Source: Spirochaetia bacterium
GTDB taxonomy: Bacteria; Spirochaetota; Spirochaetia; UBA9216
Direction of reading: 5' to 3'
Assembly: GCA_963675665.1 (NCBI GenBank)
Contig: OY776510.1
Coordinates: forward strand, 1,504,001 to 1,568,000
Length of the DNA stretch: 64,000 nucleotides
In this document: positions 46,180 through 64,000 of the stretch, piece after piece
Numbering within the stretch: position 1 is the stretch's first letter
Layout: the number at the start of each line of letters is the position of its first letter
Notes under the pieces: generated by a model
The model's database searches: none
The model's input: only the letters and a program-made list of their open reading frames with translations
What the model was told of the DNA's origin: nothing
Made by a program: the position numbers and the translations under genes

Positions 46180-46326
46180 TTTTTCATCTCCTCTTGATTT
46201 ATATTATGAATATAGCGTTATAGATAAAATTGATCAATGAGAATCTTTTAAAATATGGAATTCCTTTCAGGTAAAACATGGTTTTCCGGAATTCAATGAA
46301 AGGTTTTTCATAAAGTAATTTTTTTC

Positions 46327-46363
46327 TTGACAATTTAAGATTATATTGTTATAACAATATAAT
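46327..46363 (+). promoter_or_regulatory. Sigma70 promoter (TTGACA-17-TATAAC) overlapped by a perfect 24-bp palindromic operator
   Basis: ATTATATTGTTA|TAACAATATAAT at 46340-46363; the GTTATAAC core fits GntR/HutC-type sites. Confidence 0.8.
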
Positions 46364-46517
46364 AAATAGGCAGGCGGCATCATTCGAATGCAGCCGCGGA
46401 AAGTTATATACCGTTGTTATTAAATAAGCTTGATATTAAGGCCGTTTCGTTTAGGTTGAGTTTATAAAAAGAAAGCACCGGCAAAACAGGAACTGTTAAA
46501 AAGGAACAAGTGAAAAC

Positions 46518-47720
46518 ATGATCGACACAAAACGATTACAAACTATTAAAAAAATATATCACCGTGTTTTGGAAAAAGATGTAATTCCTTTTTGGCTGCA
46601 AAATTCTCTCGATGAGAAAAACGGCGGTTACTATAATTATCTGGATAGGGATGGAGAAGTTTTAAGCAGGGATAAATCAGTCTGGCTTCAGAATCGCGAA
46701 ATGTGGTTTTTCTCAAAGATTTATAATGAGATTGAACACCGTGAAGATTGGAAAGATGCGGCGGCTCTTGGATATAACTTTATCGGGAAACATTGTTTGG
46801 ATAACGACGGAAGAATGTTTTTTCTGGTAGATGAACAGGGCCGTAAACTTCGCAAGAGGCGCTATTGGCTGACTGATACTTTTGCAGTTCTCGGGTTTAG
46901 TCAGTATTCAGTTGCGTCAGGAGACTATAAGGCTCTCAGGGCGGCACGGCGTTCTTTTGATAAAATTATTGACTTGTATGAGAAACCGGAAGGTTTGGAG
47001 CCGAAGTTTTTTATTGAAAACAGATCTATGAAAGCATTAGTTGCACCAATGCTATTGATGTCGACTGCCCAGGAAATCAGGCAAGTTGATAAAGACTATA
47101 CTGAAAAATATAACAAAGTGATTGATACCTGCATCTGTGAAGTGAAAAATAATTTTTATAAAAAAGAAGAAGGTGCTTTGCTTGAGACAGTGTTGTCTGA
47201 TGGGCAGATTTTAAATAATCCTGAAGGAAGAATTGTAAACCCGGGACACTCTATTGAGACATCATGGTTTCTGATGAATGAAGCTTTATACAGAAAAGAT
47301 AAAGATCTTTTTTATTTGGCTCTGGAGATTCTAAATTGTTCCTATGAAAGAGGCTGGGATAACGAGTATGGCGGAATCCTGACTTTCACTGATCTTTGGG
47401 GAAAACCAAGCCCAAGGCTGGAGTGGGATATGAAATTCTGGTGGACACATACCGAAAGTCTGTTTGCCATGCTGCTTGCTTATATAGCAACACAGGATGA
47501 TTCATATCTGGCTAAATATGAGAAATTACACAAGTGGACTTTCGATTATTTTCCTGATTGTGAATATGGTGAATGGTTCGGGTACCTGCACAGAGATGGC
47601 AGCATTTCTTCTCAGATTAAGGGTTCAGAATGGAAAGGGACACTGCATTTACCCAGACTGTTATTAAACGGAATTAATTGTATTGATAATTATTCTCAGA
47701 TAGGTGCCATATTCGGTTGA
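46518..47720 (+). CDS. N-acyl-D-glucosamine 2-epimerase (AGE) family protein 1
   Basis: DKSVWLQNR, NPGHSIETSWF, MKFWWTHTE, GEWFGYLHRDG, WKGTLHLPR. Confidence 0.92.
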   Translation: MIDTKRLQTIKKIYHRVLEKDVIPFWLQNSLDEKNGGYYNYLDRDGEVLSRDKSVWLQNREMWFFSKIYNEIEHREDWKDAAALGYNFIGKHCLDNDGRMFFLVDEQGRKLRKRRYWLTDTFAVLGFSQYSVASGDYKALRAARRSFDKIIDLYEKPEGLEPKFFIENRSMKALVAPMLLMSTAQEIRQVDKDYTEKYNKVIDTCICEVKNNFYKKEEGALLETVLSDGQILNNPEGRIVNPGHSIETSWFLMNEALYRKDKDLFYLALEILNCSYERGWDNEYGGILTFTDLWGKPSPRLEWDMKFWWTHTESLFAMLLAYIATQDDSYLAKYEKLHKWTFDYFPDCEYGEWFGYLHRDGSISSQIKGSEWKGTLHLPRLLLNGINCIDNYSQIGAIFG

Positions 47721-47836
47721 TTTCATGATTTGGCGGCGGATTGTCGGGGAGTATTATCAAGTGACATAACAAGCCTGTTGCTTGAAAGATCAGAGCTTGT
47801 AAAAAACTGATAGATAAGGGGTATTTTTAAGTTGAT

Positions 47837-47850
47837 TAAGAACGTTCTTA
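47837..47850. promoter_or_regulatory. LacI-type operator palindrome TAAGAACGTTCTTA (partial second copy at 47913-47925)
   Basis: Perfect 14-bp palindrome with central CG, upstream of pfkB-lacI. Confidence 0.75.
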
Positions 47851-47973
47851 CCATGTGTCAATAATATGATATCGAAAATAGTTAAATAGATATTAGATAT
47901 AGAAATAAAATATAAGAACGTTAATGTTCAAGTGATTTAGGAGTACGTCTTTTATAATGTGTCGGGAGGACTT

Positions 47974-48864
47974 GTGAATAAGGTTTTAGTTTTCGGGATG
48001 GTGTTGTTTGACTCGATAAACGGGAAAAACTACATTGGGGGTCCGCCTCTCAATGTAACATTGCATATGGCCAGACAGGGCTTTCCTTCAATATTTATTT
48101 CTTCTGTTGGTAATGATGAGCTTGGAGTAATTGCAAAGTCCGTGTTGAAGGAAGAAGGGGTTTCTGCAGAATACGTAAAGACCGATTTACATGAAACAGG
48201 CAAGGCTGTTGCAGTTATCGATGATAATGGAATTCCTGCTTTCAATATAAAAAAGGATGTGGCCTACGATTATATTACCCTGGAGAAGGAAGAACTGGAT
48301 CGTTTATCCCATGAATATTTTGATATGCTTTACTTTGGAACAGTTGAACAACGTGGTGCGGTAACATCGGAAACATTGAAGAAAATACTGAGTCGAGTGA
48401 AGTTTAAGAATATATTCTACGATATCAATTTAAGGAAAGGGCATTTTACCCGGGAGGTTATAGATTTCTCTTTAAATAATACCAGTATTTTCAAGTTGAA
48501 TGATGAAGAAGTGATGATGCTGGATCGGATATTCGGTCTGGACCTGAATGATGAAAAAAGAATTGTTGATTGGTTATTTAATACTTATAGCATCGATGTC
48601 ATAGTTATTACCAGGGGAAGGCAGGGCGCCAGTGTTTTTACGCGTATATCTATACACGACATAGATGGAATTAAAATTGAAGTTAAAGATACAGTGGGTT
48701 CTGGAGATGCATTTTCTGCCGGTTTCATTACAGAATATCTGAAAAGCGGTGATGTGGTTGCAGCAGCTAAAAAAGGTAATGGACTCGGTGCATATGTTGC
48801 CGCGCACTCCGGGGCTGTACCGGGGTTGGAAAAGAGTAAAACAAAAGCGAAGGTAGCGAAATGA
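47974..48864 (+). CDS. PfkB-family carbohydrate kinase (fructokinase-like)
   Basis: GGPPLNV, DINLR, KLNDEE, TRGRQGA, DTVGSGDAF; GTG47974 with GGGAGG SD. Confidence 0.95.
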   Translation: MNKVLVFGMVLFDSINGKNYIGGPPLNVTLHMARQGFPSIFISSVGNDELGVIAKSVLKEEGVSAEYVKTDLHETGKAVAVIDDNGIPAFNIKKDVAYDYITLEKEELDRLSHEYFDMLYFGTVEQRGAVTSETLKKILSRVKFKNIFYDINLRKGHFTREVIDFSLNNTSIFKLNDEEVMMLDRIFGLDLNDEKRIVDWLFNTYSIDVIVITRGRQGASVFTRISIHDIDGIKIEVKDTVGSGDAFSAGFITEYLKSGDVVAAAKKGNGLGAYVAAHSGAVPGLEKSKTKAKVAK

Positions 48865-49889
48865 CTACCATAATGGATGTTGAGACCAGGAGCGGTGTTT
48901 CCCGTTCAACCATATCCCGATATCTGAACGGCAAGCCGGTGACAAGTCAAAATCGGCAAAAGATAGAACAGGCTATAAAAGAACTTTCATACCGGCGCAA
49001 TCCCATGGCGAGTGGTCTTAAGACAAGCAAGACATATACTGTAGGTGTAGTATTGCCGGAGATCACCGACCCTTATTTTCCAAGACTTGTAAAATATTTT
49101 CAAAATTATATGCATGAAAACGGGTATCAGACTATTTTTAACAGTTACGGCAACGATCCTGAACTTGAAATTGAACATGTAAAAACCCTGGCAAACAAGC
49201 GTGTGGACGGGCTTGTTGTGGCTACCATAAACAGGAAAGGAAATCATATCAGGGAGTGCCTGGATGCCGGATTGCCGGTGGTACTGTTTGACAGGCTTAT
49301 AGAAGGGTTGGATTGCGACAGTGTAACGGTAGATAACTACCAGGCAGTATACGACGCGATTTCCCTGTGTATACGAAAGGGCCACCGGAAAATCGGTTTT
49401 GTAGGTGGTTCGGAATACTACACAGATATAACAAGGTTTCGGGGGCTTTGTGATGCGTTGGGAAATGCAGGGATAAGTCTCCGGGAAGAATATATCAACT
49501 TCGCAAATATTTTGGAGCATGATGCTACCCGTCAGTTTATGCGACTGATGACTCTCACAGACCCGCCGACGCTGATTTTTTGCTCAAATATCTATCATGC
49601 ATTGGGAGCCTTTGAAGCGATGCTGCAGTACGATCTTGTGATTCCCCGGGATGTATCCGTTATTACTTTCGACAGACTTTCGGCCTCTCCTTATTACGGT
49701 TTTATACAGTGCATACATCCCGAATTTGCGAGTATTTGTCAGCCGCACAAAGAGCTCAGTTTGCAAACGGCAAAGACGCTGTTGAAAAGAATCCAATTCG
49801 GTATGGATAATTTCGAACCCATGCGACTCGAACTGAAGACAAGTTTTTATATGACCGAATCTGTTGCAGATATCAAGGAAGATTCATGA
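48861..49889 (+). CDS. LacI-family transcriptional regulator
   Basis: TIMDV..SGVSRSTISRYLN HTH, YRRNPMASGL hinge, IPRDVSVITFD. Confidence 0.95.
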   Translation: MTTIMDVETRSGVSRSTISRYLNGKPVTSQNRQKIEQAIKELSYRRNPMASGLKTSKTYTVGVVLPEITDPYFPRLVKYFQNYMHENGYQTIFNSYGNDPELEIEHVKTLANKRVDGLVVATINRKGNHIRECLDAGLPVVLFDRLIEGLDCDSVTVDNYQAVYDAISLCIRKGHRKIGFVGGSEYYTDITRFRGLCDALGNAGISLREEYINFANILEHDATRQFMRLMTLTDPPTLIFCSNIYHALGAFEAMLQYDLVIPRDVSVITFDRLSASPYYGFIQCIHPEFASICQPHKELSLQTAKTLLKRIQFGMDNFEPMRLELKTSFYMTESVADIKEDS

Positions 49890-49979
49890 TTTATGTGAGA
49901 AAAACAAAAGGGTAAATGAAAAAGGATTTGACTCTCATAGAGAGATGGTAACTTAAATTGAAAATTTGGAGGATTATTA

Positions 49980-50729
49980 ATGATTAAAATTTTGTATGCA
50001 GGCGATTATGCCTTGATATCGCACACGTACATCAAGGGTATGAATTCATGGACTTCGGGAGAAGCGTTTGATGAGCGGAACTTCCTGCTTGAACCGATGA
50101 AAGCGGACACTGAACTTGAGATCAATTATCTACCGACACCTTATATTTCGAAAGATTTTCCCTGCACAAAGGAAGAGCTTGGCAAATACGATGTTGTTAT
50201 GATCAGCGATGTCGGTACGGATACGTTGCTGCTTTACCCGGATATATTCAAGATACCGATGGGTGAGAACAGGTTAAAGCTTATTTCTGAATATGTGAAA
50301 GAAGGCGGCGGTTTTATGGCGGTCGGCGGATGGATGTCGTTCGGCGGGAAAATGGGTCAGGGCAAGTTTCACGGAACACTGTTGGAAGACGTGTTAAATA
50401 TCAACTGCAGTCCCTACGATGACCGCGTGGAAGTGCCTGAAGGATTAAAGTACAACCCAGTCAAAGCTGAGCACCCTCTGATCGAAGGTATGGATTGGGA
50501 TAAATCTCCGTTACTGTTTCTCGGGTATAACCAATTTGAAGCTAGAGACAAGGACGGTGTTATTGCAGAATGGAACGGCGACCCGATGATGGTTGTTAAT
50601 AAATACGGAAAAGGCAGAACTCTGGCATTTGCATCAGATCTTGCACCTCATTGGGGCCAGGGATTTGTCGAATGGGATAATTATACAAGGTTCTGGAGCA
50701 AGTGCTTCAGATGGCTTGCAAACAGGTGA
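49980..50729 (+). CDS. Glutamine-amidotransferase-like protein (GATase1_like/DUF1355) 1
   Basis: YDVVMISDVG, GGGFMAVGGWMSF, DDRVEVPEG, GYN, GKGR..FASD..PHW. Confidence 0.88.
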   Translation: MIKILYAGDYALISHTYIKGMNSWTSGEAFDERNFLLEPMKADTELEINYLPTPYISKDFPCTKEELGKYDVVMISDVGTDTLLLYPDIFKIPMGENRLKLISEYVKEGGGFMAVGGWMSFGGKMGQGKFHGTLLEDVLNINCSPYDDRVEVPEGLKYNPVKAEHPLIEGMDWDKSPLLFLGYNQFEARDKDGVIAEWNGDPMMVVNKYGKGRTLAFASDLAPHWGQGFVEWDNYTRFWSKCFRWLANR

Positions 50730-50763
50730 AAGAGATAAAATATGGTTTTTGGAGGTTCTTTAG

Positions 50764-51954
50764 ATGAAGCTTGAAAGAGTGAAAGAATTATATGATATAT
50801 ATCGGCGGGATCTATTTGAAGATGTATTGCCGTTCTGGACAAAGTATTCTATCGACCATGAGTACGGAGGATACCATCATTACCTTGATTGCGACGGAAA
50901 GCTGATCAGTGCGGAAAAATCAGGAATACTGAACAGCAGGCAATTGTGGACATATTCATATCTGTATAACAATTTTGGAAACAAGCAGGAATGGCTCGAT
51001 ATCGCGAAAGCCGGCTACGACTTTTTTATAAAGCATTTCATAGATTATGACGGAAGGATTTTCTTTCAGGTAACACGCGACGGCAGGCCTCTTCGAAAAA
51101 GAAGATACTGGATTGCAGAAACCTTCGCCATTTCCGCGCTGGCGGAATATTCCAAAGCTGCAGGCAGCGCAGAGGCACTACAGAAAGCGCGGGACACATT
51201 CAATCTGGTACTGTATCTGATAGAGCATCCTGACCAATTGGAGCCCAAGTTTAATCCGCAGACGCGTCCCATGATTGGCCATGTAGGCCCAATGCTGTTA
51301 ATCAATTCCGCCCAGACTATGAGGGATATCGATCCGGAAAATGCCGGTTTGTACAACGATACTATTGATCGCATGCACAATCTGATTATGGAACATCTGG
51401 TCAAGCCGGCGTATAAAGCTGTGTTTGAAGTTGTCGGGGGCAACGGAGAGGTTATGGATGACACGCCGTTGGGAAGATGTATCTCGCCGGGACACGGTAT
51501 TGTGAATGCCTGGATTGTGCTGCTTGAAGGACAATATAGAAAAGATCAAAAAATGATTCGGACCGGGCTTGATATGCTGGACTGGTCTTTGGAGATCGGT
51601 TGGGATAAGGAGTTTGGAGGCTTACTCTATTTTGTTGATCTGAAAGGGCTTCCAACTGATCAATCGAACTACCAGATGAAATATTGGTGGCCTCACAACG
51701 AAGCCATGTATGCACTTCTGCTTGCTGATGATCTTACGAATGATGGTAAATATGAAAAATGGTACGGGAAAGTTCATGAGTGGTCATATAAGCATTTTAA
51801 AGATAATGAAAACGGCGAATGGTTCGGTTATCTGAACAGAGACGGCAGCATAAATCTTCCGGTTAAAGGCGGCGACTGGAAAGGTTCGTTCCATACGACA
51901 CGTATGTATATGTACGGGTTGCAGTTGTTGGAGAAGATGAAAGCTGCCGGTTAA
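50764..51954 (+). CDS. AGE-family epimerase/isomerase 2 (divergent active site)
   Basis: SPGHGIVNAW, MKYWWPHNE, GEWFGYLNRDG, WKGSFHTTR. Confidence 0.92.
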   Translation: MKLERVKELYDIYRRDLFEDVLPFWTKYSIDHEYGGYHHYLDCDGKLISAEKSGILNSRQLWTYSYLYNNFGNKQEWLDIAKAGYDFFIKHFIDYDGRIFFQVTRDGRPLRKRRYWIAETFAISALAEYSKAAGSAEALQKARDTFNLVLYLIEHPDQLEPKFNPQTRPMIGHVGPMLLINSAQTMRDIDPENAGLYNDTIDRMHNLIMEHLVKPAYKAVFEVVGGNGEVMDDTPLGRCISPGHGIVNAWIVLLEGQYRKDQKMIRTGLDMLDWSLEIGWDKEFGGLLYFVDLKGLPTDQSNYQMKYWWPHNEAMYALLLADDLTNDGKYEKWYGKVHEWSYKHFKDNENGEWFGYLNRDGSINLPVKGGDWKGSFHTTRMYMYGLQLLEKMKAAG

Positions 51955-52028
51955 TAAACAGGTTCATGGGTGATCGGGTAATTACCCGGTCTGATTTTTA
52001 TAGAGATCAAATATATAGGGAGTAAATA

Positions 52029-52775
52029 ATGAAAGTATTATTAGTTGGAGAATCATGGTCTGGAGCAGATCAGCATACCAAGGGTTTTGATGTCGTAACT
52101 CTGGGATCTTTCAAATTCAACTGGGGCAAGCCTTATATTGATGCTGTAAGAGCGAGCGGAATTGAGTTGGAACATATGTACTGTCATATCGCGCAAAGCG
52201 ATTTTCCGATCGAACTGAAAGAGCTTCAGAAATATGATGTGGTTATTTTCAGCGATGTAGGAAGTAACACTCTTCTGCTTGATCCGGTAATGCAGTGGGA
52301 AGGTGTGCCGCGACCGAACCGCCTGAAACTGCTTGTTGAATATATCCGGCAAGGGGGAGGATTTATCATGTTCGGTGGTTGGGTCAGTTTTGCGGGATTC
52401 GAGAATAAAGCAAGGTATGCCATGACGCCGTTGGCGGAAGCGCTTCCTGTTGAGATCCTGAATTATGATGATCGGATCGAAGAGCCGGCAGGTGTTGTAC
52501 CGGAAATGGTGATAAAGGAACATCCTGTTCTGAATGGTGTCGAAGAGAAATGGCCGAGCTATCTTGGCTACAATAAATTGAAGACAAAGGCCGATGCACA
52601 GGAAATTGCTACGATCGGCGGAAGCTCCTTTATGGCCGGAATGGAATTTGGAAAAGGCCGTTCTTTTACGTTCGCAACTGACTGTGTTGGGCACTGGGGC
52701 TACGAAATGACTCAATGGAACAGCTACTCAAAGCTTATGTCCAATATGATTCGGTGGGTTGCTGGAGAAGTGTAG
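52029..52775 (+). CDS. GATase1_like/DUF1355 protein 2
   Basis: MKVLLVGESW..KGFD, FSDVGSNTLL, GGWVSF, DDRIEEP, GYN, HW. Confidence 0.9.
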   Translation: MKVLLVGESWSGADQHTKGFDVVTLGSFKFNWGKPYIDAVRASGIELEHMYCHIAQSDFPIELKELQKYDVVIFSDVGSNTLLLDPVMQWEGVPRPNRLKLLVEYIRQGGGFIMFGGWVSFAGFENKARYAMTPLAEALPVEILNYDDRIEEPAGVVPEMVIKEHPVLNGVEEKWPSYLGYNKLKTKADAQEIATIGGSSFMAGMEFGKGRSFTFATDCVGHWGYEMTQWNSYSKLMSNMIRWVAGEV

Positions 52776-52928
52776 TTAAATTATAAGCAATAAGCTGTTG
52801 TTTGCGGCAATGCCGATAAATATTTCCGAGTAGAAGGAGCTGAATTATAAAAAGAAGGAGGGAAATGAACTTTAGAGTTATAAGAAAATATATTTAAAAA
52901 AGAGGCTATAAAATCAGGAGGATAAAAG

Positions 52929-53879: not shown

Positions 53880-53956
53880 GGAGCAGTTGAATTTGGGCCC
53901 GTTTCGTTTTCCTGATGGAGCGGGCCACCGTAATCTTTGTAGAGAGGATTCATTTT

Positions 53957-54093
53957 ATGAAACAAAATGCATCGATATTATTCTTTCTGTTAAAGATGTC
54001 AATAAAAAGTTTTCAGGTGTATTGGCGCTGAACAATGTTTTCATGGAAACCAGTATGACATTGGTTATTTTATCAATACCAGGCCGGAACTGA
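53957..54093 (+). pseudogene. Deleted, frameshifted relic of a second sugar-ABC ATPase gene
   Basis: MKQN..DIILSVKDVNKKFSGVLALNNV vs intact MKENEPDIILSINDVYKSFPGVVALNKV; similar GAGAGGA-TCATT leader; second block TATCAATACCAGGCCGG matches about 55589-55605. Confidence 0.8.
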
Positions 54094-54150
54094 ATGAGAT
54101 GTTTTATAAGTATGATTGAACTTATATAGAGATAAAAGGAGGTTAGCACT

Positions 54151-54705: not shown

Positions 54706-54728
54706 AAGCTTTAAACGAAATCTAAAGA

Positions 54729-54857
54729 GCGTGCTTGATTAAAAGAAGCAATGGATATCATGGAAAACATGATTGTGAAAAACGGAAATGAAATAGAAGT
54801 TCAGTCTCTATTGTCACAACAGACAATATCTACAATTTCATTTATCCGGAGTGGTAA
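54729..54857 (+). pseudogene. Internally deleted relic of a second sugar-binding-protein gene
   Basis: EAMDIMENMIVKNGNEIE vs EAMGIMENMIVKYGDQIE, and IVTTDNIYNFIYPEW* vs VVTIDNIDDFLYPQW* of 52929-53879. Confidence 0.82.
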
Positions 54858-54929
54858 AAAAATAAAAAGCGAAGGTGTATGTTTTTTAACTGAATGTGCC
54901 TGCGCATATTATGGAGAGGAGTCATTCAA

Positions 54930-56411: not shown

Positions 56412-56428
56412 TACGGAGATGTGAAAAT

Positions 56429-57403
56429 ATGAATATTGGAATAAAACTTAAAAAAATATTGCTTGAATACCTGGTGCTGGTCTTTATTGTACTTCTCGTA
56501 ATAGTTACTGTCATTGTGGAACCGAAATTTATGACGGGCCCGAACCTCAGCAATATAATGCGTCAGTTCGGACCATTGAGTTTCGTTGCTCTCGGTATGA
56601 CTTTTGTAATTATCGGCGGTTATATAGATCTGTCGGTGACAGGGATCATTTCTCTTGTAACTGTCATAACAGTATCGCTTATCGATCCGATAGGCCAGAT
56701 TCCGGCATTGATTGTAGGGCTTGTGATAGGAGCGGGAGCAGGATTAATAAATGGTCTTTTATTGATAGCAGGGGGAGCTAATACGCAGGCTAAAGCACTG
56801 TTCATCACTTATGGTATGAGTTCGCTTTATGGAGCGCTTGCATTGATGTATACAGGGGGAGCAACCGCTCATATGAGCTGGCTTGAAACTTCTCAAACGG
56901 TGTTTACGGCTATCGGATCGGGGAACGTGGGATTTCTTTCCGTATCGTTCATCGTGTTCCTGGCATGTCTTTTTGTGCTTTATGTCTTTTTAAACAATAC
57001 GCATGAAGGCAGGGCGATACATGTTCTGGGTGGAAACAAGGTTGCAGGAGAGCTGTCCGGAGTTCCGGTGAAACGCAGCCTTGTATTGATATATATGTTA
57101 TGCGGTTTTATGTCGGCAGTCGGCGCTGTAGTATTGTTTTCAAGAACAACAATGGCTATGCCGGCCTGCGGTAAAGGGTATGAGGTCAATGCAATACTGG
57201 CCGTAGTTGTTGGAGGGACGAGTCTTAAAGGAGGCAACGGCAGTGTCCTGCGTACGGTGCTGGGTGTTCTGTTAGTGACGTTGATGGCCAATTGTCTCGA
57301 CCTGTTGAGGGTATCCACATACTACCAAACAGTATTTAAAGGTTTGATCCTTGTGCTTGCTATCTGGCTTGATAACCGGAATAAACAGCAGGGAGGGGAA
57401 TGA
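56429..57403 (+). CDS. Sugar ABC transporter permease
   Basis: GMTFVIIGGYIDLSV, AVVVGGTSLKGG. Confidence 0.94.
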   Translation: MNIGIKLKKILLEYLVLVFIVLLVIVTVIVEPKFMTGPNLSNIMRQFGPLSFVALGMTFVIIGGYIDLSVTGIISLVTVITVSLIDPIGQIPALIVGLVIGAGAGLINGLLLIAGGANTQAKALFITYGMSSLYGALALMYTGGATAHMSWLETSQTVFTAIGSGNVGFLSVSFIVFLACLFVLYVFLNNTHEGRAIHVLGGNKVAGELSGVPVKRSLVLIYMLCGFMSAVGAVVLFSRTTMAMPACGKGYEVNAILAVVVGGTSLKGGNGSVLRTVLGVLLVTLMANCLDLLRVSTYYQTVFKGLILVLAIWLDNRNKQQGGE

Positions 57404-57404
57404 T

Positions 57405-58373
57405 ATGAACAATATACATATGATTGGCCGGAAAGTTTTAAAAATCTCTACAAAACAAAAAGCAGTGGTAGCGATTTTCTTAATGATGATATTTATGATT
57501 TTCCCGGATACGAAATTCTATTCAACCTATAACCTGATAAATCTGATTCGATCGACGTCAGTGCTTGAAATCATAGCATTTGGTGTTACGTTGACTATAA
57601 TTTGCGGTGGAGTCGACCTGTCTGTAGGCGGAATGGTATCGCTCTCAGGGATTCTTACCATAAAACTTATGAATTATATGCCTATAGTTCCTGCTATTCT
57701 ATGCGCAGTACTGGTTGGGGCTGTCGTGGGTTTTATTAACGGATTTCTTTCCGTGCATCAGAAAACTGAGCCTTTTATTATAACATTGGGTATGGGAATG
57801 CTTCTTAAGGGTATAAGTCTGGTTATGTCGGATGCTCACCCGGTTCCCTGTATGAATCCGATGTTTGTGAAAATATCGAATGGATTCCTGTTTGGTAGTA
57901 TTCCAAATATAGTCGTATATATGTTAGTGCTTCTTGTGGCTACATACTCCCTGTTGAGGTATACAAGGTTTGGAAGGAACTGTTATGCAATAGGAGGCGA
58001 TTATAGTGTGGCCGCATATTCGGGTATCAATGTTATCTGGACTAAATGGGCTACCTTTATTCTAAGCGGAATGTTCGCTGCGCTTGCCGGAGTATTATTA
58101 GCCTCAGAGATGAATACAGGTTCTCCTAATTATGGAGATGCAATTCCTCTTTTGGTTTGTTGCGGTGTTGTAGTAGGCGGTACTTCTTTCTCGGGTGGTG
58201 TGGGAGGAGCATTTCAGAGCTTTTTCGGTTTGCTTGTTATTCAATTACTCACAACCTGTATGAATATGTTAGGAGTCGGGGCTTATCCGCAGCAGGCTTT
58301 TCAGGGAATTGTTATTGTAATGATTATCTGGATGGACTGTTTTGCGGACAAGCGAAAACGAGAGGCTGTGTGA
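57405..58373 (+). CDS. Sugar ABC transporter permease
   Basis: GGVDLSVG, FIITLG, FGRNCYAIGG, VVGGTSFSGG. Confidence 0.94.
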   Translation: MNNIHMIGRKVLKISTKQKAVVAIFLMMIFMIFPDTKFYSTYNLINLIRSTSVLEIIAFGVTLTIICGGVDLSVGGMVSLSGILTIKLMNYMPIVPAILCAVLVGAVVGFINGFLSVHQKTEPFIITLGMGMLLKGISLVMSDAHPVPCMNPMFVKISNGFLFGSIPNIVVYMLVLLVATYSLLRYTRFGRNCYAIGGDYSVAAYSGINVIWTKWATFILSGMFAALAGVLLASEMNTGSPNYGDAIPLLVCCGVVVGGTSFSGGVGGAFQSFFGLLVIQLLTTCMNMLGVGAYPQQAFQGIVIVMIIWMDCFADKRKREAV

Positions 58374-58449
58374 CAGAATTATCTGTTACGGTATATTTCG
58401 GGGAGCTATGAAAATAAATATAGCTTATTAAATATTTGGAGGACTATTA

Positions 58450-59001
58450 ATGAACTTGGAATCAACACTAACAAAATGGACAAAGGAAGAATTACAAAAG
58501 AAGGCGTATGATTTGGCCCATACATATGAACACGAATGTGCTTATTGTCCGCAGGCAACAATTGCAGCTCTTATGGATGTTTTTCAAATAAAAGATGATG
58601 ATCTGTTCAGATCGGCTTATGGATTTCATGGAGGCGCCGGAGACCGTGGTATCGGTACTTGCGGAGCTTTATGCGCCGGTATTTTAATTATCAGTTATTT
58701 ATACGGAAGAAACAAAACAGAATTTAATTTTGGAAAGGCAAATCGAAGGGCGACAGATTTAGCCGGAAAACTTGTTGATGAATTTAAAAAAGAATTTGAA
58801 GGAATTACATGCAACGAAGTGCAGGAGAAAATGTTCGGCCGATCTTTTAATAATTATGACGAAGAAGAAGTCAAGCTTTTTCTTGAAGAGGGCGGACATA
58901 CTGAGAAATGCCCTATAGTTACCGGACGGGGAGCTGCTTTGGCCGCCGGTATTATTTGGGAGGAATTGGAGAAAGAATTATTTGGGTTGGATATTGAATA
59001 A
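58450..59001 (+). CDS. C-GCAxxG-C-C family putative redox protein
   Basis: YCPQA, GFHGG..TCGALCAG, ITC, KC. Confidence 0.88.
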   Translation: MNLESTLTKWTKEELQKKAYDLAHTYEHECAYCPQATIAALMDVFQIKDDDLFRSAYGFHGGAGDRGIGTCGALCAGILIISYLYGRNKTEFNFGKANRRATDLAGKLVDEFKKEFEGITCNEVQEKMFGRSFNNYDEEEVKLFLEEGGHTEKCPIVTGRGAALAAGIIWEELEKELFGLDIE

Positions 59002-59178
59002 AATAAAGAATTAATTTTTAAGCCGAGAGTTTACAGGATGCCTTTTAACTTGAAACTCCCGGCACATAAACTGATTTTTCGGATTTAACAACCGGGTTTT
59101 ATCATCTATTGATTAATTAAAACAGTTGTAAATGCGGAAACTCGCTGCTGGATAGAAATGTAAACAGGAGGCATATTC

Positions 59179-59457
59179 ATGAAAACTGGACTTGTAAATA
59201 CAATTTCAGCTGATTACAGACTGGATGAACTATTGAATGTCGCTGCTGATGCTGAGAGAAAGCATACCGATGGTATGCAAATCGAGGAGGGCCGCACTGA
59301 CGGATCTGAGGGAATAGAGAGTTCAGGATTAAACTATTTTTCGAATACTTTAATGGAAGGTCCGGTTCAAAGAGAGTTTTTAATATTCTATACAAAAATG
59401 ACAATAGACGGCACATTGATACAGAACAAATATAACACAATATACGGGATAGGATAA
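59179..59457 (+). pseudogene. Short ORF, probable deletion relic of a sugar-phosphate isomerase/epimerase (TIM barrel)
   Basis: Strong AGGAGG SD; MKTGLV..DYRLDELL start and HTDGMQIE / TLMEG blocks resemble AP_endonuc_2 proteins, but only 92 aa. Confidence 0.4.
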
Positions 59458-60170
59458 TGGAACTGCAGGAAATAGCCGATATGATTGATCACTCTCTTTT
59501 GCGACCGGAGCTTACAACTGCAGAGATAGTCGAGGGGTGCAGGCTTGCTGATAAATATCATTGCGTCTCAATATGCTGCAGACCTTCCGATGTTAAGTTG
59601 TGTACAGAAGTTCTCCGGGATTCCAAAACCATAGTAACAACAGTTATAGGTTTTCCTCACGGCAGCAGTCTGACCGGAATAAAGGTTCTTGAGGCTGAGA
59701 CAGCATGCAGAGACGGTGCTGTTGAGCTTGATATGGTAATAAATATAGGCAGACTGTTGTCCGGGGATTATGAGTATGTAGAAAATGATATCAGAGCTGT
59801 TGCCGAGGCTGCTAAAAAATACGATGCAATTATAAAAGTAATACTTGAAAATTGCTATCTGGATGATGAACACAAGCGCATAGCCTGCAGACTTAGTGAA
59901 AAAGCCGGTGCTGCATTCGTAAAGACTTCAACAGGTTTTGGAAAACCAGCTGATGGACGGGCTACAGGAGCTACTCTGGATGATTTAAGGCTCATGCGGG
60001 AGGAATGCAGTTCTTCTGTAAAAATTAAAGCTGCAGGTGGAGTGCGCAGTTTAACCGAAATGTTGGAAGTAAAAGCAGCCGGAGCAGACAGGGCCGGTGC
60101 AACGGCCACAAAATCGATAATGGAGGAGGCAAAGCAAAGAGAACTTGAGGGAAAGCTGGAAATTGTATAG
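59457..60170 (+). CDS. deoC: Deoxyribose-phosphate aldolase
   Basis: IDHSLL, VIGFPHG, ELDMVINIG, KVILE, FVKTSTGF, KAAGGVR. Confidence 0.95.
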   Translation: MELQEIADMIDHSLLRPELTTAEIVEGCRLADKYHCVSICCRPSDVKLCTEVLRDSKTIVTTVIGFPHGSSLTGIKVLEAETACRDGAVELDMVINIGRLLSGDYEYVENDIRAVAEAAKKYDAIIKVILENCYLDDEHKRIACRLSEKAGAAFVKTSTGFGKPADGRATGATLDDLRLMREECSSSVKIKAAGGVRSLTEMLEVKAAGADRAGATATKSIMEEAKQRELEGKLEIV

Positions 60171-60200
60171 ATTGTAACCTGGATGAAATAAGGATATGTT

Positions 60201-60959
60201 ATGGAGAAAATAGATTACAATTCAGGAATGCCGCTTTATCTTCAATTGAAAGATATAATAAAAAAACAGATTATGGCAGGCCATTATTCGCCTGGAGTAA
60301 AGATTCCAACAGAAGAAGAATACTGTAAAAAGTATGATATCAGCCGTATTACTGTGCGGCAGGCGATCAACTACCTTGTACAGGAAAAGCTTCTGATTAG
60401 AAAGCAGGGAAAAGGAACCTTTGTAGCTTCGGCAAAGATGAAAAAGCACCTGCCTAAATTGTACAGTTTTACTGAAGACATGATTGCAGAAGGACGAACT
60501 CCTGATTCGATTATTATGAACAGCTCTGTTATGGATGCAGATGAAGAGATTGCAGGAATACTTGAATTGCCGGAAAGCAATAAAAAGGTTTTTAAGCTTT
60601 GCCGTGTGAGGCGGGCAGATGAGGTTCCGATTCTTTACGAAACCACCTATATACCTGATTATCTTTGTCCGGAACTCGGCAGGTTCGATTTTTCACAGGT
60701 GTCTTTATATAAGGTTCTTCAGCAGGAATATGAATTAATTTTTAAATATGCGGAGGAGAGATATGAGGCTTCTCTTTTAAATAAGGAAACTGCGGTTATT
60801 CTTGAAACTGCAATGAACGATCCGGCGTTTAATATATATCGTGTGGCATTTCTGGAAGACAGCCGACCGTATGAGCTGACATATGCAACCGGAAAAGGCG
60901 ATTCATTGAGTTTTACAGTTACTCTGGTTCCTGAAACAAAAATAAAACGCAATTATTAG
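60201..60959 (+). CDS. GntR-family regulator, HutC/UTRA subfamily
   Basis: PLYLQ, IPTEEE, SRITVRQA, QGKGTFV, SFTEDM, SLY. Confidence 0.95.
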   Translation: MEKIDYNSGMPLYLQLKDIIKKQIMAGHYSPGVKIPTEEEYCKKYDISRITVRQAINYLVQEKLLIRKQGKGTFVASAKMKKHLPKLYSFTEDMIAEGRTPDSIIMNSSVMDADEEIAGILELPESNKKVFKLCRVRRADEVPILYETTYIPDYLCPELGRFDFSQVSLYKVLQQEYELIFKYAEERYEASLLNKETAVILETAMNDPAFNIYRVAFLEDSRPYELTYATGKGDSLSFTVTLVPETKIKRNY

Positions 60960-61030
60960 GAGTTTTTTTAATTGGTTCTAATATTATAACATTATATAGA
61001 TATATTATAATAAGGGCGTACAGGTTTTTT

Positions 61031-61879
61031 ATGAAGACAAATATATTTGAATTAAAAGGACAAACTGCGGTCGTTACCGGGGCCGGCGGAGAACTGGCCG
61101 GAGCAATATCAATCGGGCTGGCTGAATTGGGTGTAAAGGTAGCTGTTCTTGATATAAATAAAGACAAAGCTGAGAACTGCACGGATAAAATAAAGGCCGG
61201 CGGGGGATTTGCAAAAGCCTATGTCTGTGACGTACTCGATGCCGGTCAATTAAAGGAAGTTTATTCTGAAATAAAAAAAGACTGGGGTACTCCGGGGCTG
61301 CTTTTAAACGGTGCGGGCGGTAATCATCCCATGGCAACTACAGATAACGAGTTCCTTGAGCGTGAAGATTTGAATAATGAAGAGTTAACCCGGATTTTTT
61401 TTAATCTTGATATGAAAGGTGTTGAGGCAACATTTGCGTTAAATTTCTACGGCACATTTCTTCCTTCCCAGATTTTCAGCAGGGGAATGATTGAGAACGG
61501 CAGGGGATCAATTGTAAATATCTCATCAATGAACGCCTTTACTCCACTGACGAAAATTCCTGCATATTCCGCCGCAAAATCATCCGTATCAAATTTTACA
61601 AGGTGGCTGGCTGTGCACTTTTCGCATGCGGGAGTCAGGGTTAATGCAATTGCTCCAGGTTTTTTTATGACGGAACAATTACGTTTTTTACATATTGATC
61701 AGCAAACAGGTGAATATACGCCAAGAGCAAAAAAAGTTGTTGAGCATACACCGATGGGTCGTTATGGAGAACCGGAAGAGCTGCTGGGAACAGCTGTATG
61801 GCTTTTTTCGGAAGCTTCAAGCTTTGTAACCGGGGCTGTGATCCCGGTAGACGGCGGCTTTTCTTCGTATGCTATTTAA
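61031..61879 (+). CDS. SDR oxidoreductase, D-mannonate oxidoreductase (UxuB/YjmF)-like
   Basis: NGAGGNHP, SSMNAFTPLTKIPAYSAAK, HTPMGRYGEPEEL, VDGGFSSY. Confidence 0.88.
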   Translation: MKTNIFELKGQTAVVTGAGGELAGAISIGLAELGVKVAVLDINKDKAENCTDKIKAGGGFAKAYVCDVLDAGQLKEVYSEIKKDWGTPGLLLNGAGGNHPMATTDNEFLEREDLNNEELTRIFFNLDMKGVEATFALNFYGTFLPSQIFSRGMIENGRGSIVNISSMNAFTPLTKIPAYSAAKSSVSNFTRWLAVHFSHAGVRVNAIAPGFFMTEQLRFLHIDQQTGEYTPRAKKVVEHTPMGRYGEPEELLGTAVWLFSEASSFVTGAVIPVDGGFSSYAI

Positions 61880-61889
61880 GGAGAAGACA

Positions 61890-62744
61890 GTGAGTGAGAC
61901 TGAATATACAGTACCGAATGAACTGCCGGTAAAAAAAGCAAAGATAGATTTAAGCGGGCAGAAAGCTGTTATAACAGGGGCAAGTAAAGGTATTGGCTCT
62001 GCTATAGCGTTAGAGTTGGCGGAAAGCGGGGCGGATGTTCTTATAAATTACTATTCGGACAAGACCGGCGCTGAAGAGGCTGCCGATCTTGTGGAAGCAA
62101 CGGGACAGAAGGCTCTTCTATTCAAGGCTGATGTATCAGACGAACAGAATGTAATTGATATGTTCGCCGCCTGTAAAAGAGAATTCGGAAGAGTCGATAT
62201 CTGTATTCCCAACTCAGGCATCCAGAGAAATGCGCCCTTTGCTGAAATGACGCTGCAGGAATGGCAAAGGGTAATCGATGTGAATTTGACAGGTCAGTTT
62301 CTTGTATCCCGGGAAGCAGTAAAAATGTTTCTTGATCAGGGGATAAACAGCAAGATCTCGTATTCAGCAGGCAAAATTGTATATATGAGCTCGGTTCATG
62401 ATGTAATTCCCTGGGAAGGCCATGTAAATTATGCAACAGCCAAAGGCGGTATTATGCTTATGATGAAATCAGTAGCACAGGAGCTGGCCCACAAACGAAT
62501 CAGGGTTAATTCTGTTTCGCCCGGTGCGTGCAGAACTCCAATGAATGTGGAGAAGTTGACAAGTCCCGAGGAATTTGAAAATACCCTGCTGCGGCTGATA
62601 CCCTATAAAAGAATTGGTGAGCCGGAAGATGTTGCAAGAGCTGTAGCATGGCTGGCTTCTGATTCCTCTGATTATGTTAACGGTTCAACAATTTACGTGG
62701 ACGGCGGAATGTGTCTTTATCCCGGATTTATCGGAGGAGGTTGA
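61890..62744 (+). CDS. SDR oxidoreductase, glucose 1-dehydrogenase-like
   Basis: TGASKGIG, SSVHDVIPW..NYATAKGG, IPYKRIGEPED, DGGMCLYP. Confidence 0.9.
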   Translation: MSETEYTVPNELPVKKAKIDLSGQKAVITGASKGIGSAIALELAESGADVLINYYSDKTGAEEAADLVEATGQKALLFKADVSDEQNVIDMFAACKREFGRVDICIPNSGIQRNAPFAEMTLQEWQRVIDVNLTGQFLVSREAVKMFLDQGINSKISYSAGKIVYMSSVHDVIPWEGHVNYATAKGGIMLMMKSVAQELAHKRIRVNSVSPGACRTPMNVEKLTSPEEFENTLLRLIPYKRIGEPEDVARAVAWLASDSSDYVNGSTIYVDGGMCLYPGFIGGG

Positions 62745-62746
62745 GA

Positions 62747-63928
62747 ATGCACCTGAATGAGAAACGAATAATTACTTTCAGAAAAGAACTGGAATTAAAC
62801 GGTCTGGATGCCGTAATTGTTCAGAAGCCGGAAAATGTTCTTTTTTTAAGCGGCTTTTGGCCGATGATTGGGATGTCGGTTCTTGTCTTGCCTGTATCAG
62901 GGAAGCCTGTCTGTATAATTCCTGACTGCTATAAAAACGAAGCCGAAAGCTGCCTTTGGGAGGCTGAAGCTGTATTTTACAAATACGGGCTTCTCGACTC
63001 CCCTGATCCGGAAGAGGCTATAATAAAAATCTTGGACGCTTTAATAAATAAAAGAAGCCTGAAGAGAATCGGCCTGGAATTGACCTCCGGAGTATCCGCA
63101 GTGTCCTGGAACAGTGCTGAGTTCATCCCTCCTTTGAATTGCATAAAAGAATTTCTGTCTGAAAATGAATCAGTCTCTAATTTGATCGATATTACTCCAC
63201 TGATTCAGGAACAAAAGCTGCGAAAGACCGAATATGAGGCGGAAAAGATAAATATCGCAAATGAAGCCGCCTGCAGAGGTCTCGATGCTTTTTATAAAAA
63301 TGTGTGCCCGGGGATTTCCGGAGTGGAACTTGTCGCCGAGATTGAGAAAGCTGTTATGACAGAATCAACCGCTTCCGGCTTGAAAAGGGTACGCGCTTAT
63401 GCCCAGGTTGCTGTCGGGGCGGATGAAACAGCTTCAGCATACAGACCGAACGAGATCTCCACAAATCGAAGGCTGCTTGACGGAGAAATTGCCATGCTTG
63501 AACTTGGAGTGACAGCCGACGGTTATTGGGCGGACCGGACCAGAACTGCAGTAGCCGGAAGAAATACCCCGGAACAACTGAAGATTTTTGATATAGTGAC
63601 AGAAGCACAGGAAAGGGCCGTTTTAAAAGTCCGTGCCGGAATAATGGCTTCGGAAGTTGATGAGGCAGCAAGAGCGTATATAGTTGAAGCCGGTTACGGA
63701 AAGTATTTTCCGCATATCACCGGGCACGGCGTAGGTTTTGTTTATCATGAACCAGGGCCGTTTATCCGGCCGGGAAACAGCCAAATCCTTGAAGAAGGTA
63801 TGATCTTCTCCATAGAACCGGGTATCTATATTCCGTCTTTCGGAGGCGTAAGGATAGAAGATAATGTTCTGGTTACGTCAGACGGAAGTAAAACTCTCGG
63901 CCCGTTTAGAAAGGCTCAATCGGCTTGA
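62747..63928 (+). CDS. M24 family metallohydrolase (Xaa-Pro peptidase/creatinase fold)
   Basis: Creatinase_N region; GYWADRTRT, HITGHGVG..HE, FSIEPGIY, GVRIED. Confidence 0.92.
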   Translation: MHLNEKRIITFRKELELNGLDAVIVQKPENVLFLSGFWPMIGMSVLVLPVSGKPVCIIPDCYKNEAESCLWEAEAVFYKYGLLDSPDPEEAIIKILDALINKRSLKRIGLELTSGVSAVSWNSAEFIPPLNCIKEFLSENESVSNLIDITPLIQEQKLRKTEYEAEKINIANEAACRGLDAFYKNVCPGISGVELVAEIEKAVMTESTASGLKRVRAYAQVAVGADETASAYRPNEISTNRRLLDGEIAMLELGVTADGYWADRTRTAVAGRNTPEQLKIFDIVTEAQERAVLKVRAGIMASEVDEAARAYIVEAGYGKYFPHITGHGVGFVYHEPGPFIRPGNSQILEEGMIFSIEPGIYIPSFGGVRIEDNVLVTSDGSKTLGPFRKAQSA

Positions 63929-64000
63929 ACTCGGCGCTGAAACTGTCTTCGACTGATCTGTGGGAACTGCCGGGGATTCAGACAGTATACGGGCCTGAAT

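Follow-up and report, generated by a model that had tools for sequence, protein, structure and literature searches.

A 17.9-kb inserted carbohydrate-utilisation island with two AGE-type epimerases and two PF07090 proteins, possibly recombined from separately travelling gene sets

Several described systems of sugar catabolism resemble a block of 17 genes within a 64,000-bp stretch of DNA (GenBank assembly GCA_963675665.1, contig OY776510.1; G000:C1:1504001-1568000), which in its full length is called the window here and is part of a genome of the Clostridia type with 5.15 Mb on a single contig. The block encodes two epimerases of the AGE family, two proteins of the family PF07090 (GATase1_like, formerly DUF1355), a PfkB-type sugar kinase, a CUT2 ABC importer, a PF04115-like cupin, and a group of genes ending with an M24 metallohydrolase. 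In the NanL-NanE(II)-RokA pathway of Bacteroides, an AGE-type NanE-II converts ManNAc to GlcNAc, according to the part of PMC13228529 that describes this pathway. The block resembles this system in being a catabolic sugar locus that encodes epimerases of the AGE clade with their catalytic residues conserved, but possesses neither a DHDPS-family lyase nor an ROK kinase, contains two AGE paralogs with a rare pocket, and has a CUT2 ABC importer instead of NanT, plus the PfkB kinase. In the architecture of its transporter, and in having both a LacI-family regulator and a kinase of the PfkB type, it matches rbs-type CUT2 operons; this kinase, however, is fructokinase-like and not RbsK, RbsD is not encoded, and genes for AGE, PF07090, cupin and C_GCAxxG_C_C proteins are present in addition.

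The Salmonella locus STM3547-STM3550, which encodes the PfkB kinase RikA, STM3548, a DMT transporter and a protein of the phosphotriesterase (PTE) family, also pairs a PF07090 protein with a PfkB kinase and a transporter, and STM3548 (PDB 2gk3) is the closest solved structure to one of the two PF07090 proteins, PF07090-B. The island contains no PTE and no DMT transporter, and its PfkB belongs to another subfamily, whereas the Salmonella locus is devoid of AGE, cupin and ABC importer. In the part of the 2026 paper on the RikA kinase that concerns the neighbouring STM3548 locus, this locus is still unexplained and its function unknown (PMC13432705). PflD, a glycyl radical enzyme (GRE), is the 1,5-anhydromannitol-6-phosphate C-O lyase of an "anhydroglycolysis" route, as stated in a section of a review (PMC13450708). 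In such PflD/YbiW systems, 1,5-anhydrohexitol-6-phosphate C-O lyases are combined with an aldolase. Relatives of the island transporter or of PF07090-B adjoin PflD-like GREs, activases and ROK genes in the loci L006, L007, L020, L148 and L150, with L020 also holding DeoC, whereas the island has neither GRE nor activase, and the GRE of its own genome at 2.05 Mb comes with a separate substrate-binding protein (SBP). Finally, fructoselysine (frl)-type systems use a GntR/UTRA regulator, a PfkB kinase and a SIS deglycase. The GntR/UTRA regulator of the island matched best to NF008491, which we take to be the FrlR-type model, with 169 bits below the cut-off of 269; its PfkB reached 60 bits compared to the fructoselysine-kinase cut-off of 247, and a SIS domain is not encoded.

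Comparison with a genome of the same genus (G001, contig C25) confirmed that the block is a true insertion, present in this species and missing from the sister species. In a tblastx alignment, the window positions 45626-46149 and the positions 64090-64752 (positions above 64000 are counted on from the window into the genome) matched places in G001 that are about 145 bp apart. On the left flank, the homolog of a gene for a 186-aa protein (unk186) ends at window position 46149, and on the right flank, a Rex homolog with 87% amino acid identity starts at about 64047-64090. Since these flanking genes are separated by about 145 bp in G001 but by 17.9 kb in this genome, about 17.9 kb starting near position 46150 were inserted. 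The inserted island extends from 46150 to the window end at 64000, with its right border located about 25 to 90 bases further downstream. Rex and cobalamin genes follow on the 3' side, which makes the M24 gene the final gene of the block. All 17 genes are located on the + strand between 46.3 and 63.9 kb, as indicated by open reading frame listing and scans with Pfam and NCBIfam, and the intergenic gaps are small except for those between AGE1 and PfkB (238 bp), SBP and cupin (271 bp), cupin and ATPase (188 bp), and C_GCAxxG_C_C and DeoC genes (455 bp). The mean GC content of the block is about 0.42 and that of the upstream region about 0.455. Five other genomes of the same genus contained no close AGE homolog, with only distant AGE-family matches in two of them (best E value 1.8e-12) and none in the remaining three, and no full-length PF07090 gene, with one partial match within a 1542-aa frame. 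The two border stretches shared no direct repeat of 12 nt or more, none of the 17 genes contained a mobile-element domain in the Pfam and NCBIfam scans, and a megablast search of the whole island in a plasmid collection gave no match.

These data, together with the distribution of the gene sets described below, give about an even chance that the block is an island for carbohydrate utilisation, about 17.9 kb in length, that was acquired horizontally, was recombined from at least three separately travelling gene sets and does not represent one conserved pathway. A preliminary description of this DNA had proposed an uncharacterised catabolic island that forms one pathway for an N-substituted sugar. 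The uncharacterised island stands, now as an acquired one; the single pathway is improbable, the modules being independently distributed. The gene list and the coordinates of that description were borne out, with the addition of the C_GCAxxG_C_C gene at 58450-59001, which it had omitted.

The first gene set would comprise AGE1, PfkB-LacI, and PF07090-A/AGE2, with the two AGEs performing the 2-epimerisation of an N-acyl-hexosamine-type sugar, followed by phosphorylation by PfkB. AGE1 (46518-47720, + strand) and AGE2 (50764-51954, + strand) are 41% identical to each other and matched PF07221 with E values of 1.5e-46 and 1.1e-47, respectively, in both cases over the profile positions 1-340 of 347. 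They aligned to the AGE of Pedobacter (8bry) with 1.5e-101 and 2.2e-102 and end-to-end to those of Anabaena (2gz6) and Nostoc (6f04) with 1e-73 to 1e-92. With the NCBIfam AGE equivalog NF052547, AGE1 scored 367 bits and AGE2 scored 328, both below the cut-off of 600. The distance to other members of the superfamily is important for an alternative interpretation, namely that a neutral pentose, hexose or anhydro-sugar is imported, with the AGE-fold enzymes acting as aldose 2-epimerases or aldose-ketose isomerases, PfkB generating a ketose phosphate, and DeoC and the SDRs finishing the degradation by known chemistry. The AGE superfamily does include hexose isomerases and epimerases, as outlined in a part of PMC6333288, which agrees with such a neutral-sugar route; the island AGEs, however, matched cellobiose epimerases only with 1e-32 and YihS isomerases only with 1e-6. 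Considering also the evidence on pocket and transporter given below, we regard a neutral-sugar route as unlikely.

The active sites were compared in an alignment of the 120 best AGE2 homologs, AGE2 included, with AGE1 as the reference row. The catalytic Arg, His, Glu and His residues were present in 120 of the 120 sequences and in AGE1, with the two active-site histidines presumably having the roles usually assigned to them. Arg63 and Glu314 are described as catalytic in PhGn2E in a part of PMC6333288. Section 3.4 of the same paper proposes Phe116/Ala173/Ile177 as the N-acetyl pocket of nAGE10, with Tyr/Asn/His at these positions in hexose enzymes, and Glu243 of nAGE10 is given there as the counterpart of a residue 4.4 Å from C2 in the related YihS complex. 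The pocket triad of the island enzymes is hydrophobic but non-canonical, being Leu/Val/Leu in AGE1 and Ile/Val/Leu in AGE2. Because these C2-pocket positions are hydrophobic and do not contain Tyr/Asn/His, the pocket is not of the hexose type; the residues that bind the C2 hydroxyl group in hexose enzymes are missing, which is a second argument against a neutral sugar as the substrate. The Phe-Ala-Ile triad occurred in 65 of the 120 homologs and the pattern Leu/Ile/Phe, then Val/Ile, then Leu in 8, which are the closest relatives. All seven other Clostridia AGEs that were compared, including the NanA-linked one of L098 but not those of L162 and L163, have Phe or Tyr, then Ala, Ser or Gly, and then Ile. 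A Val at the position of nAGE10 Glu243 was present in only 2 of the 120 sequences, AGE2 and its 75% identical homolog. As judged from these residues, AGE1 and AGE2 are enzymes of the N-acylhexosamine clade with a non-standard substrate pocket. This agrees with the preliminary assignment as far as the clade is concerned, with the catalytic residues kept and the C2 pocket hydrophobic, and it is mainly the remodelling of the pocket that speaks in favour of an unusual sugar with a 2-N-substituent.

Ordinary salvage of ManNAc or sialic acid as in the NanLE-RokA pathway would be a simpler explanation: ManNAc is imported or comes from a lyase encoded elsewhere, is converted by AGE to GlcNAc and phosphorylated, and the other island genes are bystanders. 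Such a pathway with an AGE-type NanE-II has been described (the respective part of PMC13228529), and AGE homologs of other Clostridia adjoin genes for DHDPS-family (NanA-like) lyases and ROK kinases, in L098 in the order DHDPS-sulfatase-AGE, where a divergently oriented gene for an AraC-type regulator separates AGE from the ROK gene two genes on, and in L162 and L163 as an AGE-DHDPS arrangement. The genome, however, contains no nanA above the cut-off, the island encodes no ROK kinase, the pocket of its AGEs differs from that of 7 of the 7 other Clostridia enzymes, and this reading does not account for the fact that AGE is present in two paralogs and that each of them adjoins a PF07090 gene. 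Ordinary salvage is thus very unlikely. A search of the 11 genomes of the order revealed no close AGE2. As a side observation, other Clostridia (L098, L099, L158, L160, L163) repeatedly have genes of the URO-D family (uroporphyrinogen-decarboxylase-like; corrinoid methyltransferases share this fold) adjacent to AGE genes and to M24-SDR2 loci.

The PfkB-family kinase (47959-48864, + strand; PF00294 with 7.4e-36) is fructokinase-like. Its match to 2qhp, annotated as "Fructokinase," with 2.1e-43, the best solved relative, agrees with a neutral-sugar route. The best homologs in 300 genomes of the class were only 38% identical. A conserved PfkB-AGE unit was considered and rejected: only 1 of 63 genomes with a PfkB homolog (G197) had an adjacent AGE-like gene, the product of which is without the catalytic His and Glu according to the alignment. 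The start of the gene for the LacI-family regulator (48861-49889, + strand; Pfam and NCBIfam) overlaps the PfkB stop by 4 nt.

A promoter scan identified the promoter-like sequence TTGACA-17-TATAAC upstream of AGE1 (46327-46363, + strand), and position 46327, at which the preliminary description had the block begin, is the start of its TTGACA. A perfect 24-bp palindrome at 46340-46363 overlaps this site and is a candidate operator for a presumed regulator. Upstream of PfkB-LacI, the perfect 14-bp palindrome TAAGAACGTTCTTA with a central CG (47837-47850, no strand assigned) is a candidate LacI operator, through which LacI would control the first gene set, and a half-site copy is located at 47913-47926. 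Because the window contains five matches to this motif compared to 3.1 expected by chance, only the perfect copy is of note. The palindrome was not found upstream of PF07090-A, the SBP gene or the ABC genes. An operator common to both ends of the island could not be identified, since the AGE1 palindrome has only a relative with three mismatches in the gap between GntR and SDR1; AT-rich palindromes are also common here, and a common regulon is thus not established. After AGE2, a terminator-like hairpin of 8 pairs, 5 of them GC, is followed by the T-run TGATTTTTAT (51972-52001, + strand), which is a match to the consensus only.

To understand the fate of the product of the first gene set, the genome was searched for the genes of amino-sugar catabolism. 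As the preliminary description had noted, NanA, NagA and NagB are absent from the window, and all genome-wide matches to these families are located outside it. NagB is encoded at 2.015 Mb. The best match to NagA in the genome had 21 bits compared to a cut-off of 226, and no nanA was above the cut-off, the best candidate having 256 instead of 382 bits and being located in a uronate/KDG-like cluster. A gene for a 648-aa protein in which a NagB-like domain is fused to a deacetylase domain of the PIG-L (LmbE) type (L146:3592-5538; G000:C1:2007591-2009537) adjoins a GntR-PBP regulator and a CUT1 ABC importer, with the separate NagB gene 6 kb away. Since NagB and the NagB-like/PIG-L fusion are present, enzymes encoded outside the island could complete the degradation of an N-acetylhexosamine after its epimerisation and phosphorylation. 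The product of the first set would then enter amino-sugar catabolism by means of these two proteins, with no canonical NagA involved.

The genome holds exactly two PF07090 genes, both in the island and their products 35% identical to each other. Paralog A (49980-50729, + strand) matched the family with 8.9e-68 and 228.9 bits, and paralog B (52029-52775, + strand) with 8.1e-79 and 265.1 bits, compared to a gathering cut-off of 27; B also matched 2gk3 with 1e-56 and 3soz with 7e-52. Structures of PF07090/DUF1355 proteins have been solved since 2006. Full-text searches with the family name, the accession and the PDB codes found no functional study, in agreement with the preliminary statement that DUF1355 has no assigned reaction. 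An AlphaFold2 model of PF07090-B (pLDDT 92.9) matched 2gk3 (STM3548) and 3soz (STM1381), both uncharacterised, at TM scores of 0.94 to 0.95. The next fold neighbours were 3rht, GH42 middle domains, which are not catalytic, and ThuA-like proteins, and TrpG, a true amidotransferase, reached a TM score of 0.53 at 11% identity. In an alignment of 21 PF07090 sequences, 28 columns were invariant, for instance Ser75-Asp76, Asn97, Asp147-Asp148-Arg149, Arg211, Asp218 and Trp223, but neither these sequences nor 22 sequences of the A subfamily contained an invariant or near-invariant Cys. An identity as class I glutamine amidotransferase was not supported, as there is no conserved Cys nucleophile or recognisable triad.

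These results affect the preliminary interpretation, according to which the island encodes a single route, so far not described, for a sugar that carries an N-acyl or N-carbamoyl group or is linked to an amino acid, with the PF07090 proteins, the cupin and M24 cleaving C-N bonds as amidases, deglycases or urea-releasing lyases. With no invariant Cys and fold neighbours that are uncharacterised or non-catalytic, the amidase or deglycase assignment of PF07090 comes from the name of the fold and was not supported. A C-N-cleaving pathway nevertheless has evidence in its favour. The block is one indel, the AGE pocket is rare (8 compared to 65 with Phe-Ala-Ile among 120), the Glu-to-Val exchange of AGE2 occurs in only 2 of 120, M24 keeps a plausible metal centre, and the genome is without NagA. 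Moreover, the closest homologs of PF07090-A (P0242, 89% identity) and AGE2 (P0122, 75% identity) were each located on only one JGI contig, with a length of 18,194 bp in both cases. It is very probably the same metagenome contig, so that this pair very probably recurs. Another of the closest AGE2 relatives is on a 3.84-Mb ENA contig, and an 88% identical homolog of PF07090-B (P0002) is on a contig of 11,961 bp. A predicted complex of AGE2 and PF07090-A had a score of 0.00, which weighs neither way. Orthologs of paralog A with 72-73% identity exist in the same taxonomic family (G008, G010), where they form a small operon with an uncharacterised 302-aa gene and an ROK gene amid housekeeping genes.

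The neighbourhood of PF07090 genes was analysed in two samples. The first contained 80 loci of many phyla (L006-L085), selected for the highest similarity to paralog B, in which the island proteins were searched by tblastn with E values of 1e-8 or better and at least 50% coverage. AGE1, AGE2 and the cupin were matched in none of them, the island PfkB and DeoC in 2 each, M24 in 1, the LacI-type regulator in 53, and the ABC ATPase in 36. Neighbours within 5 kb were counted after de novo clustering, Pfam assignment and a tblastn recount: LacI/PBP-type proteins in 45 loci, the CUT2 ATPase in 41, ribokinase-like PfkB in 25, PTE in 16, M20 in 14, adenine deaminase in 8, nucleoside hydrolase in 6, BtpA in 5, and RpiB and GRE in 4 each. 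PTE and M20 were concentrated near PF07090, with only 2 and 0 additional loci, respectively, at 5 to 10 kb. At least one gene for M20, PTE, adenine or cytidine deaminase, nucleoside hydrolase, Amidohydro_1 or creatininase was located within 5 kb in 36 of the 80 loci, and such hydrolase genes thin out away from PF07090, both of which agree with C-N cleavage; PTE-family neighbours, however, may be sugar-lactone lactonases. As an observation in its own right, the co-occurrence of PfkB and PTE near PF07090 across phyla, as at Salmonella STM3547-3550, suggests a recurring pathway for a sugar or sugar conjugate.

The second sample was chosen with the family HMM and comprised 34 loci in 31 of 400 genomes of the class. 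AGE and cupin genes were each found in 0 of these 34 loci, and conversely none of 8 AGE loci and none of 7 cupin loci elsewhere contained PF07090. The preliminary description had named co-occurrence of AGE, DUF1355 and AllA-like genes in other genomes as decisive for its single pathway, and this co-occurrence was largely missing from both samples and both reverse views. There were two exceptions, the probable PF07090-A/AGE2 contig and one genus: AGE and PF07090 genes were on one contig in only two genomes of the class sample, both of this genus, with 3.4 to 3.8 kb separating a distant PF07090-like gene in an MFS-PF07090-ClC-esterase set from the divergent operon AGE-DHDPS-AKR-UROD-GntR. PF07090 and the cupin occur repeatedly in monosaccharide loci, as accessory proteins, and are not demonstrable C-N hydrolases. 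A single C-N-cleaving pathway, against which the missing Cys and triad, the low similarity to TrpG and the missing co-occurrence speak, is improbable.

The second gene set of the patchwork would consist of PF07090-B and the CUT2 importer, as in the Christensenellaceae locus L006, with the cupin inserted later. The importer includes an RbsB-like SBP (52929-53879, + strand; Peripla_BP_4 with 3.2e-43), an ATPase (54894-56411, + strand), and two permeases (56429-57403 and 57351-58373, + strand), the latter three assigned with Pfam and NCBIfam. Orthologs of the SBP with 42-47% identity were found in L006, L064 and L147-L153, and those of the ATPase with 72-73% identity in L006, L064 and L147-L150, which represent two genomes and several metagenome contigs. 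In L006, an ortholog of paralog B with 60% identity is located directly upstream of the orthologous transporter genes, and L064 also carries a PF07090 gene. AGE or cupin genes never accompanied the transporter orthologs in the sampled loci. Where the contig reaches that far (L006, L148, L150), the transporter genes stand beside those for a PflD-like GRE and its activase; in L064, L147 and L149, no island enzyme was in reach, and a GRE was also absent in L064 and L149.

This part of the island provides evidence in favour of a neutral-sugar route. The SBP matched ribose-binding proteins in the PDB with about 1e-25, and the loci of the transporter clade and of PF07090-B relatives, which contain PflD-like GREs, ROK kinases, Rpe, TAL/FSA, RbsD and DeoC, fit the use of a pentose or an anhydro-hexitol. 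The GRE of L006 is closest to PflD of Escherichia coli (8yjo, 4e-186). The island itself, however, contains no GRE, and the PflD-like GRE of this genome at 2.05 Mb, 61% identical to that of L006, stands beside its own SBP paralog, which is 48% identical to the island SBP. About 10 GRE paralogs of the PFL family were found in the genome, at G000:C1:2052879-2056301 and nine further places, all outside the window.

The cupin gene (54151-54705, + strand) separates the SBP gene from the ATPase gene. Its product matched PF04115 with 5.1e-15 and 55.9 bits compared to a gathering cut-off of 23, but its best score with an NCBIfam AllA model was 48.4 bits compared to a cut-off of 212, with the scores for five other AllA models also under their cut-offs (range 160 to 282), and AllA entries of the PDB were matched only with 3.4e-7. 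Searches of the ESM Atlas with the cupin returned only PF04115-type clusters. The genome encodes four such cupins, all in clusters with sugar ABC, Dak or PfkB genes. One of the three other paralogs heads a cupin-SBP-permease-permease-ATPase-Dak1-Dak2 operon that is conserved in G004, G005 and G049, with a short contig of 8.5 kb of G052 containing only the start of this operon, cupin and SBP. Another ends an SBP-ABC-Dak1-Dak2 operon, and the last has a PfkB gene on one side and an alcohol dehydrogenase/GatZ set on the other. Purine, allantoin or urea genes were not found near any of the four. An identity as the ureidoglycolate lyase AllA was not supported, given the scores below all AllA cut-offs and the sugar-cluster context. 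The link to urea release, which the preliminary description had drawn, was likewise not supported, and the company of the paralogs, which includes ABC importers and kinases of the Dak or PfkB type but no genes of nitrogen metabolism, is a further argument against C-N cleavage. We know of no described role for a PF04115-like cupin that heads a ketose-kinase/ABC operon. As a side observation, the cupin-headed Dak1-Dak2 operon (L136:10613-19903; G000:C1:2112612-2121902) ends with a gene for a PocR-domain histidine kinase; G004, G005 and G049 contain the same gene run, with no label at the places where Dak1, Dak2 and the kinase stand in this genome.

On both sides of the cupin gene, decayed remnants of the neighbouring genes were identified by blastx. 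Upstream, a remnant of the 5' end of the ABC ATPase gene (53974-54048, + strand) was 60% identical over 25 aa to the ATPase residues 19-43, with an E value of 5e-6. Downstream, two SBP remnants were present, one (54745-54798, + strand) with 78% identity over 18 aa to the residues 202-219 and 7e-6, and the other (54810-54854, + strand) with 60% identity over 15 aa to the C-terminal residues 302-316 and 9e-5. In L006, the SBP and ATPase genes are adjacent and PF07090 is directly upstream. This arrangement and the remnants on both sides indicate that the cupin gene was inserted into an existing PF07090-SBP-ATPase operon between duplicated junction sequences, and leaving behind the ATPase 5' and SBP 3' remnants would have been part of the later history of the second set. 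These recombination scars show piecemeal assembly, which also speaks against one C-N-cleaving pathway.

The third gene set would be DeoC-GntR-SDR1-SDR2-M24, with an SDR2-M24 core that is conserved in other Clostridia beside other CUT2 importers. DeoC (59457-60170, + strand) reached 205.7 bits for TIGR00126 compared to a cut-off of 117.3 and is one of four copies in the genome, the other paralogs being 37-42% identical. The regulator (60201-60959, + strand) contains GntR and UTRA domains and is of the HutC type, with orthologs of 43-46% identity near M24 orthologs in L158 and L161. SDR1 (61031-61879, + strand) belongs to the D-mannonate-oxidoreductase subfamily (NF006132 with 374 bits compared to a cut-off of 281; 4wuv with 2.6e-84), and SDR2 (61869-62744, + strand) is glucose-1-dehydrogenase-like (NF005559 with 228 bits compared to 215; 1rwb with 6e-67). 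The M24 metallohydrolase (62711-63928, + strand) matched PF00557 with 1.2e-52 and the Creatinase_N family PF01321, and the prolidase 1wy2 with 2.7e-44. The sequence GHGVGFVYHE is kept. The five metal ligands of M24 enzymes are Asp, Asp, His, Glu and Glu; with their positions taken from a motif and not from a structural alignment, D275, H339, E369 and E383 are invariant in 9 orthologs, and the first Asp position is presumably occupied by the invariant Glu264. Judged by its sequence, M24 appears to be catalytically active as a metallohydrolase and to have a distinct signature. The chemistry of the third set may include oxidation of an aldose at C1 by SDR2, metal-dependent hydrolysis by M24, and aldol cleavage of a sugar derivative by DeoC.

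M24 orthologs with 45-54% identity were found in 8 of the 400 class genomes (L154-L161). In seven of these eight loci, an SDR2 homolog is adjacent to M24 or within a few genes, six of them with 50-69% and one with 33% identity. CUT2 ABC genes were present in 5 of the 8 loci, Gfo/Idh/MocA oxidoreductases in 4, and TAL/FSA aldolases in 2. DeoC (52%) and GntR/UTRA (46%) occurred together in one locus, L158, in the order M24-DeoC-GntR-SBP-ABC; a further GntR/UTRA regulator (43%), SDR1 (42%), and PfkB with a SIS-domain protein (L156) were each found in one. AGE, PF07090 and cupin genes occurred in none of the eight, so that SDR2-M24 travels without those proteins that a single C-N-cleaving pathway would require. 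On these comparisons, SDR2-M24 is the best-conserved unexplained feature of the block, and we know of no described pathway that matches this pair in combination with CUT2 importers, Gfo/Idh/MocA, TAL/FSA or DeoC.

Evaluation of the patchwork interpretation, including the N-acyl-hexosamine-type sugar as the substrate of the first gene set, needs to consider several points that weigh against it. The whole block is one indel, its 17 genes are co-oriented and intact, and two regulators are encoded within it, all of which would likewise agree with selection as a unit for one substrate. The separateness of the modules was judged in sampled genomes and over distances of up to about 10 kb. To our knowledge, CUT2/RbsB-like importers do not carry N-acetylhexosamines. 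PfkB kinases are not the usual kinases of GlcNAc, and the island PfkB is without a close ortholog. The gene content, the insertion, the recombination scars, the separate distribution of the modules and the residue patterns are direct observations, but every substrate and reaction, as well as the pairing of regulators with operators, is inferred. Moreover, the remodelled pocket and the Glu-to-Val exchange of AGE2 may mean that the substrate is not GlcNAc or ManNAc at all.

This last point leads to an additional, quite unlikely interpretation, in which the PF07090-A/AGE2 pair, AGE1 and PF07090-B act on a 2-N-substituted hexosamine other than GlcNAc and ManNAc. PF07090 would remove or rearrange the N-substituent by means of the invariant Asp-Asp-Arg, Ser-Asp and Asp...His-Trp residues, with no Cys nucleophile, and SDR2-M24-DeoC would subsequently oxidise, hydrolyse and cleave the product. 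It is based on the very probable recurrence of the pair on the 18,194-bp contig and on the Ile-Val-Leu pocket of AGE2 with its Glu-to-Val exchange. If true, DUF1355 would have its first assigned function, and gut Clostridia would have a new route for amino sugars.

Between the second and third gene sets of the patchwork, the C_GCAxxG_C_C family protein (58450-59001, + strand) matched PF09719 with 4e-19. The 455-bp gap before DeoC (59002-59456) contains a 92-aa open frame (59179-59457, + strand) without family assignment; it had no Rfam match and no detectable gene remnant, and no RNA family was found at an E value of 0.1 or better over the positions 45000-64000. The neighbourhood is variable on both sides of the island. 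About 2.4 kb between an MMPL gene and the 186-aa gene of G001 (L144; G001:C25, 4690-7122, compared to window positions 45455-45625) are missing in this genome, and the window positions 40665-43164, which contain a 396-aa gene and most of an MFS gene (41960-43174), had no alignment in the 10-kb stretch of G001 that was compared.

For the PF07090 family, the search for a function is now narrowed: its members have no amidotransferase nucleophile and, across phyla, are associated with monosaccharide importers under LacI control and with ribokinase-like kinases, and one subfamily is paired with a rare AGE variant. In gut-type Clostridia, two units are flagged, an AGE subclade with a remodelled N-acyl pocket and an SDR/M24 module, with or without DeoC and GntR, beside sugar importers. 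Finally, a tidy island of co-oriented genes can be a recombinational patchwork, which calls for caution when one pathway is deduced from adjacency alone.

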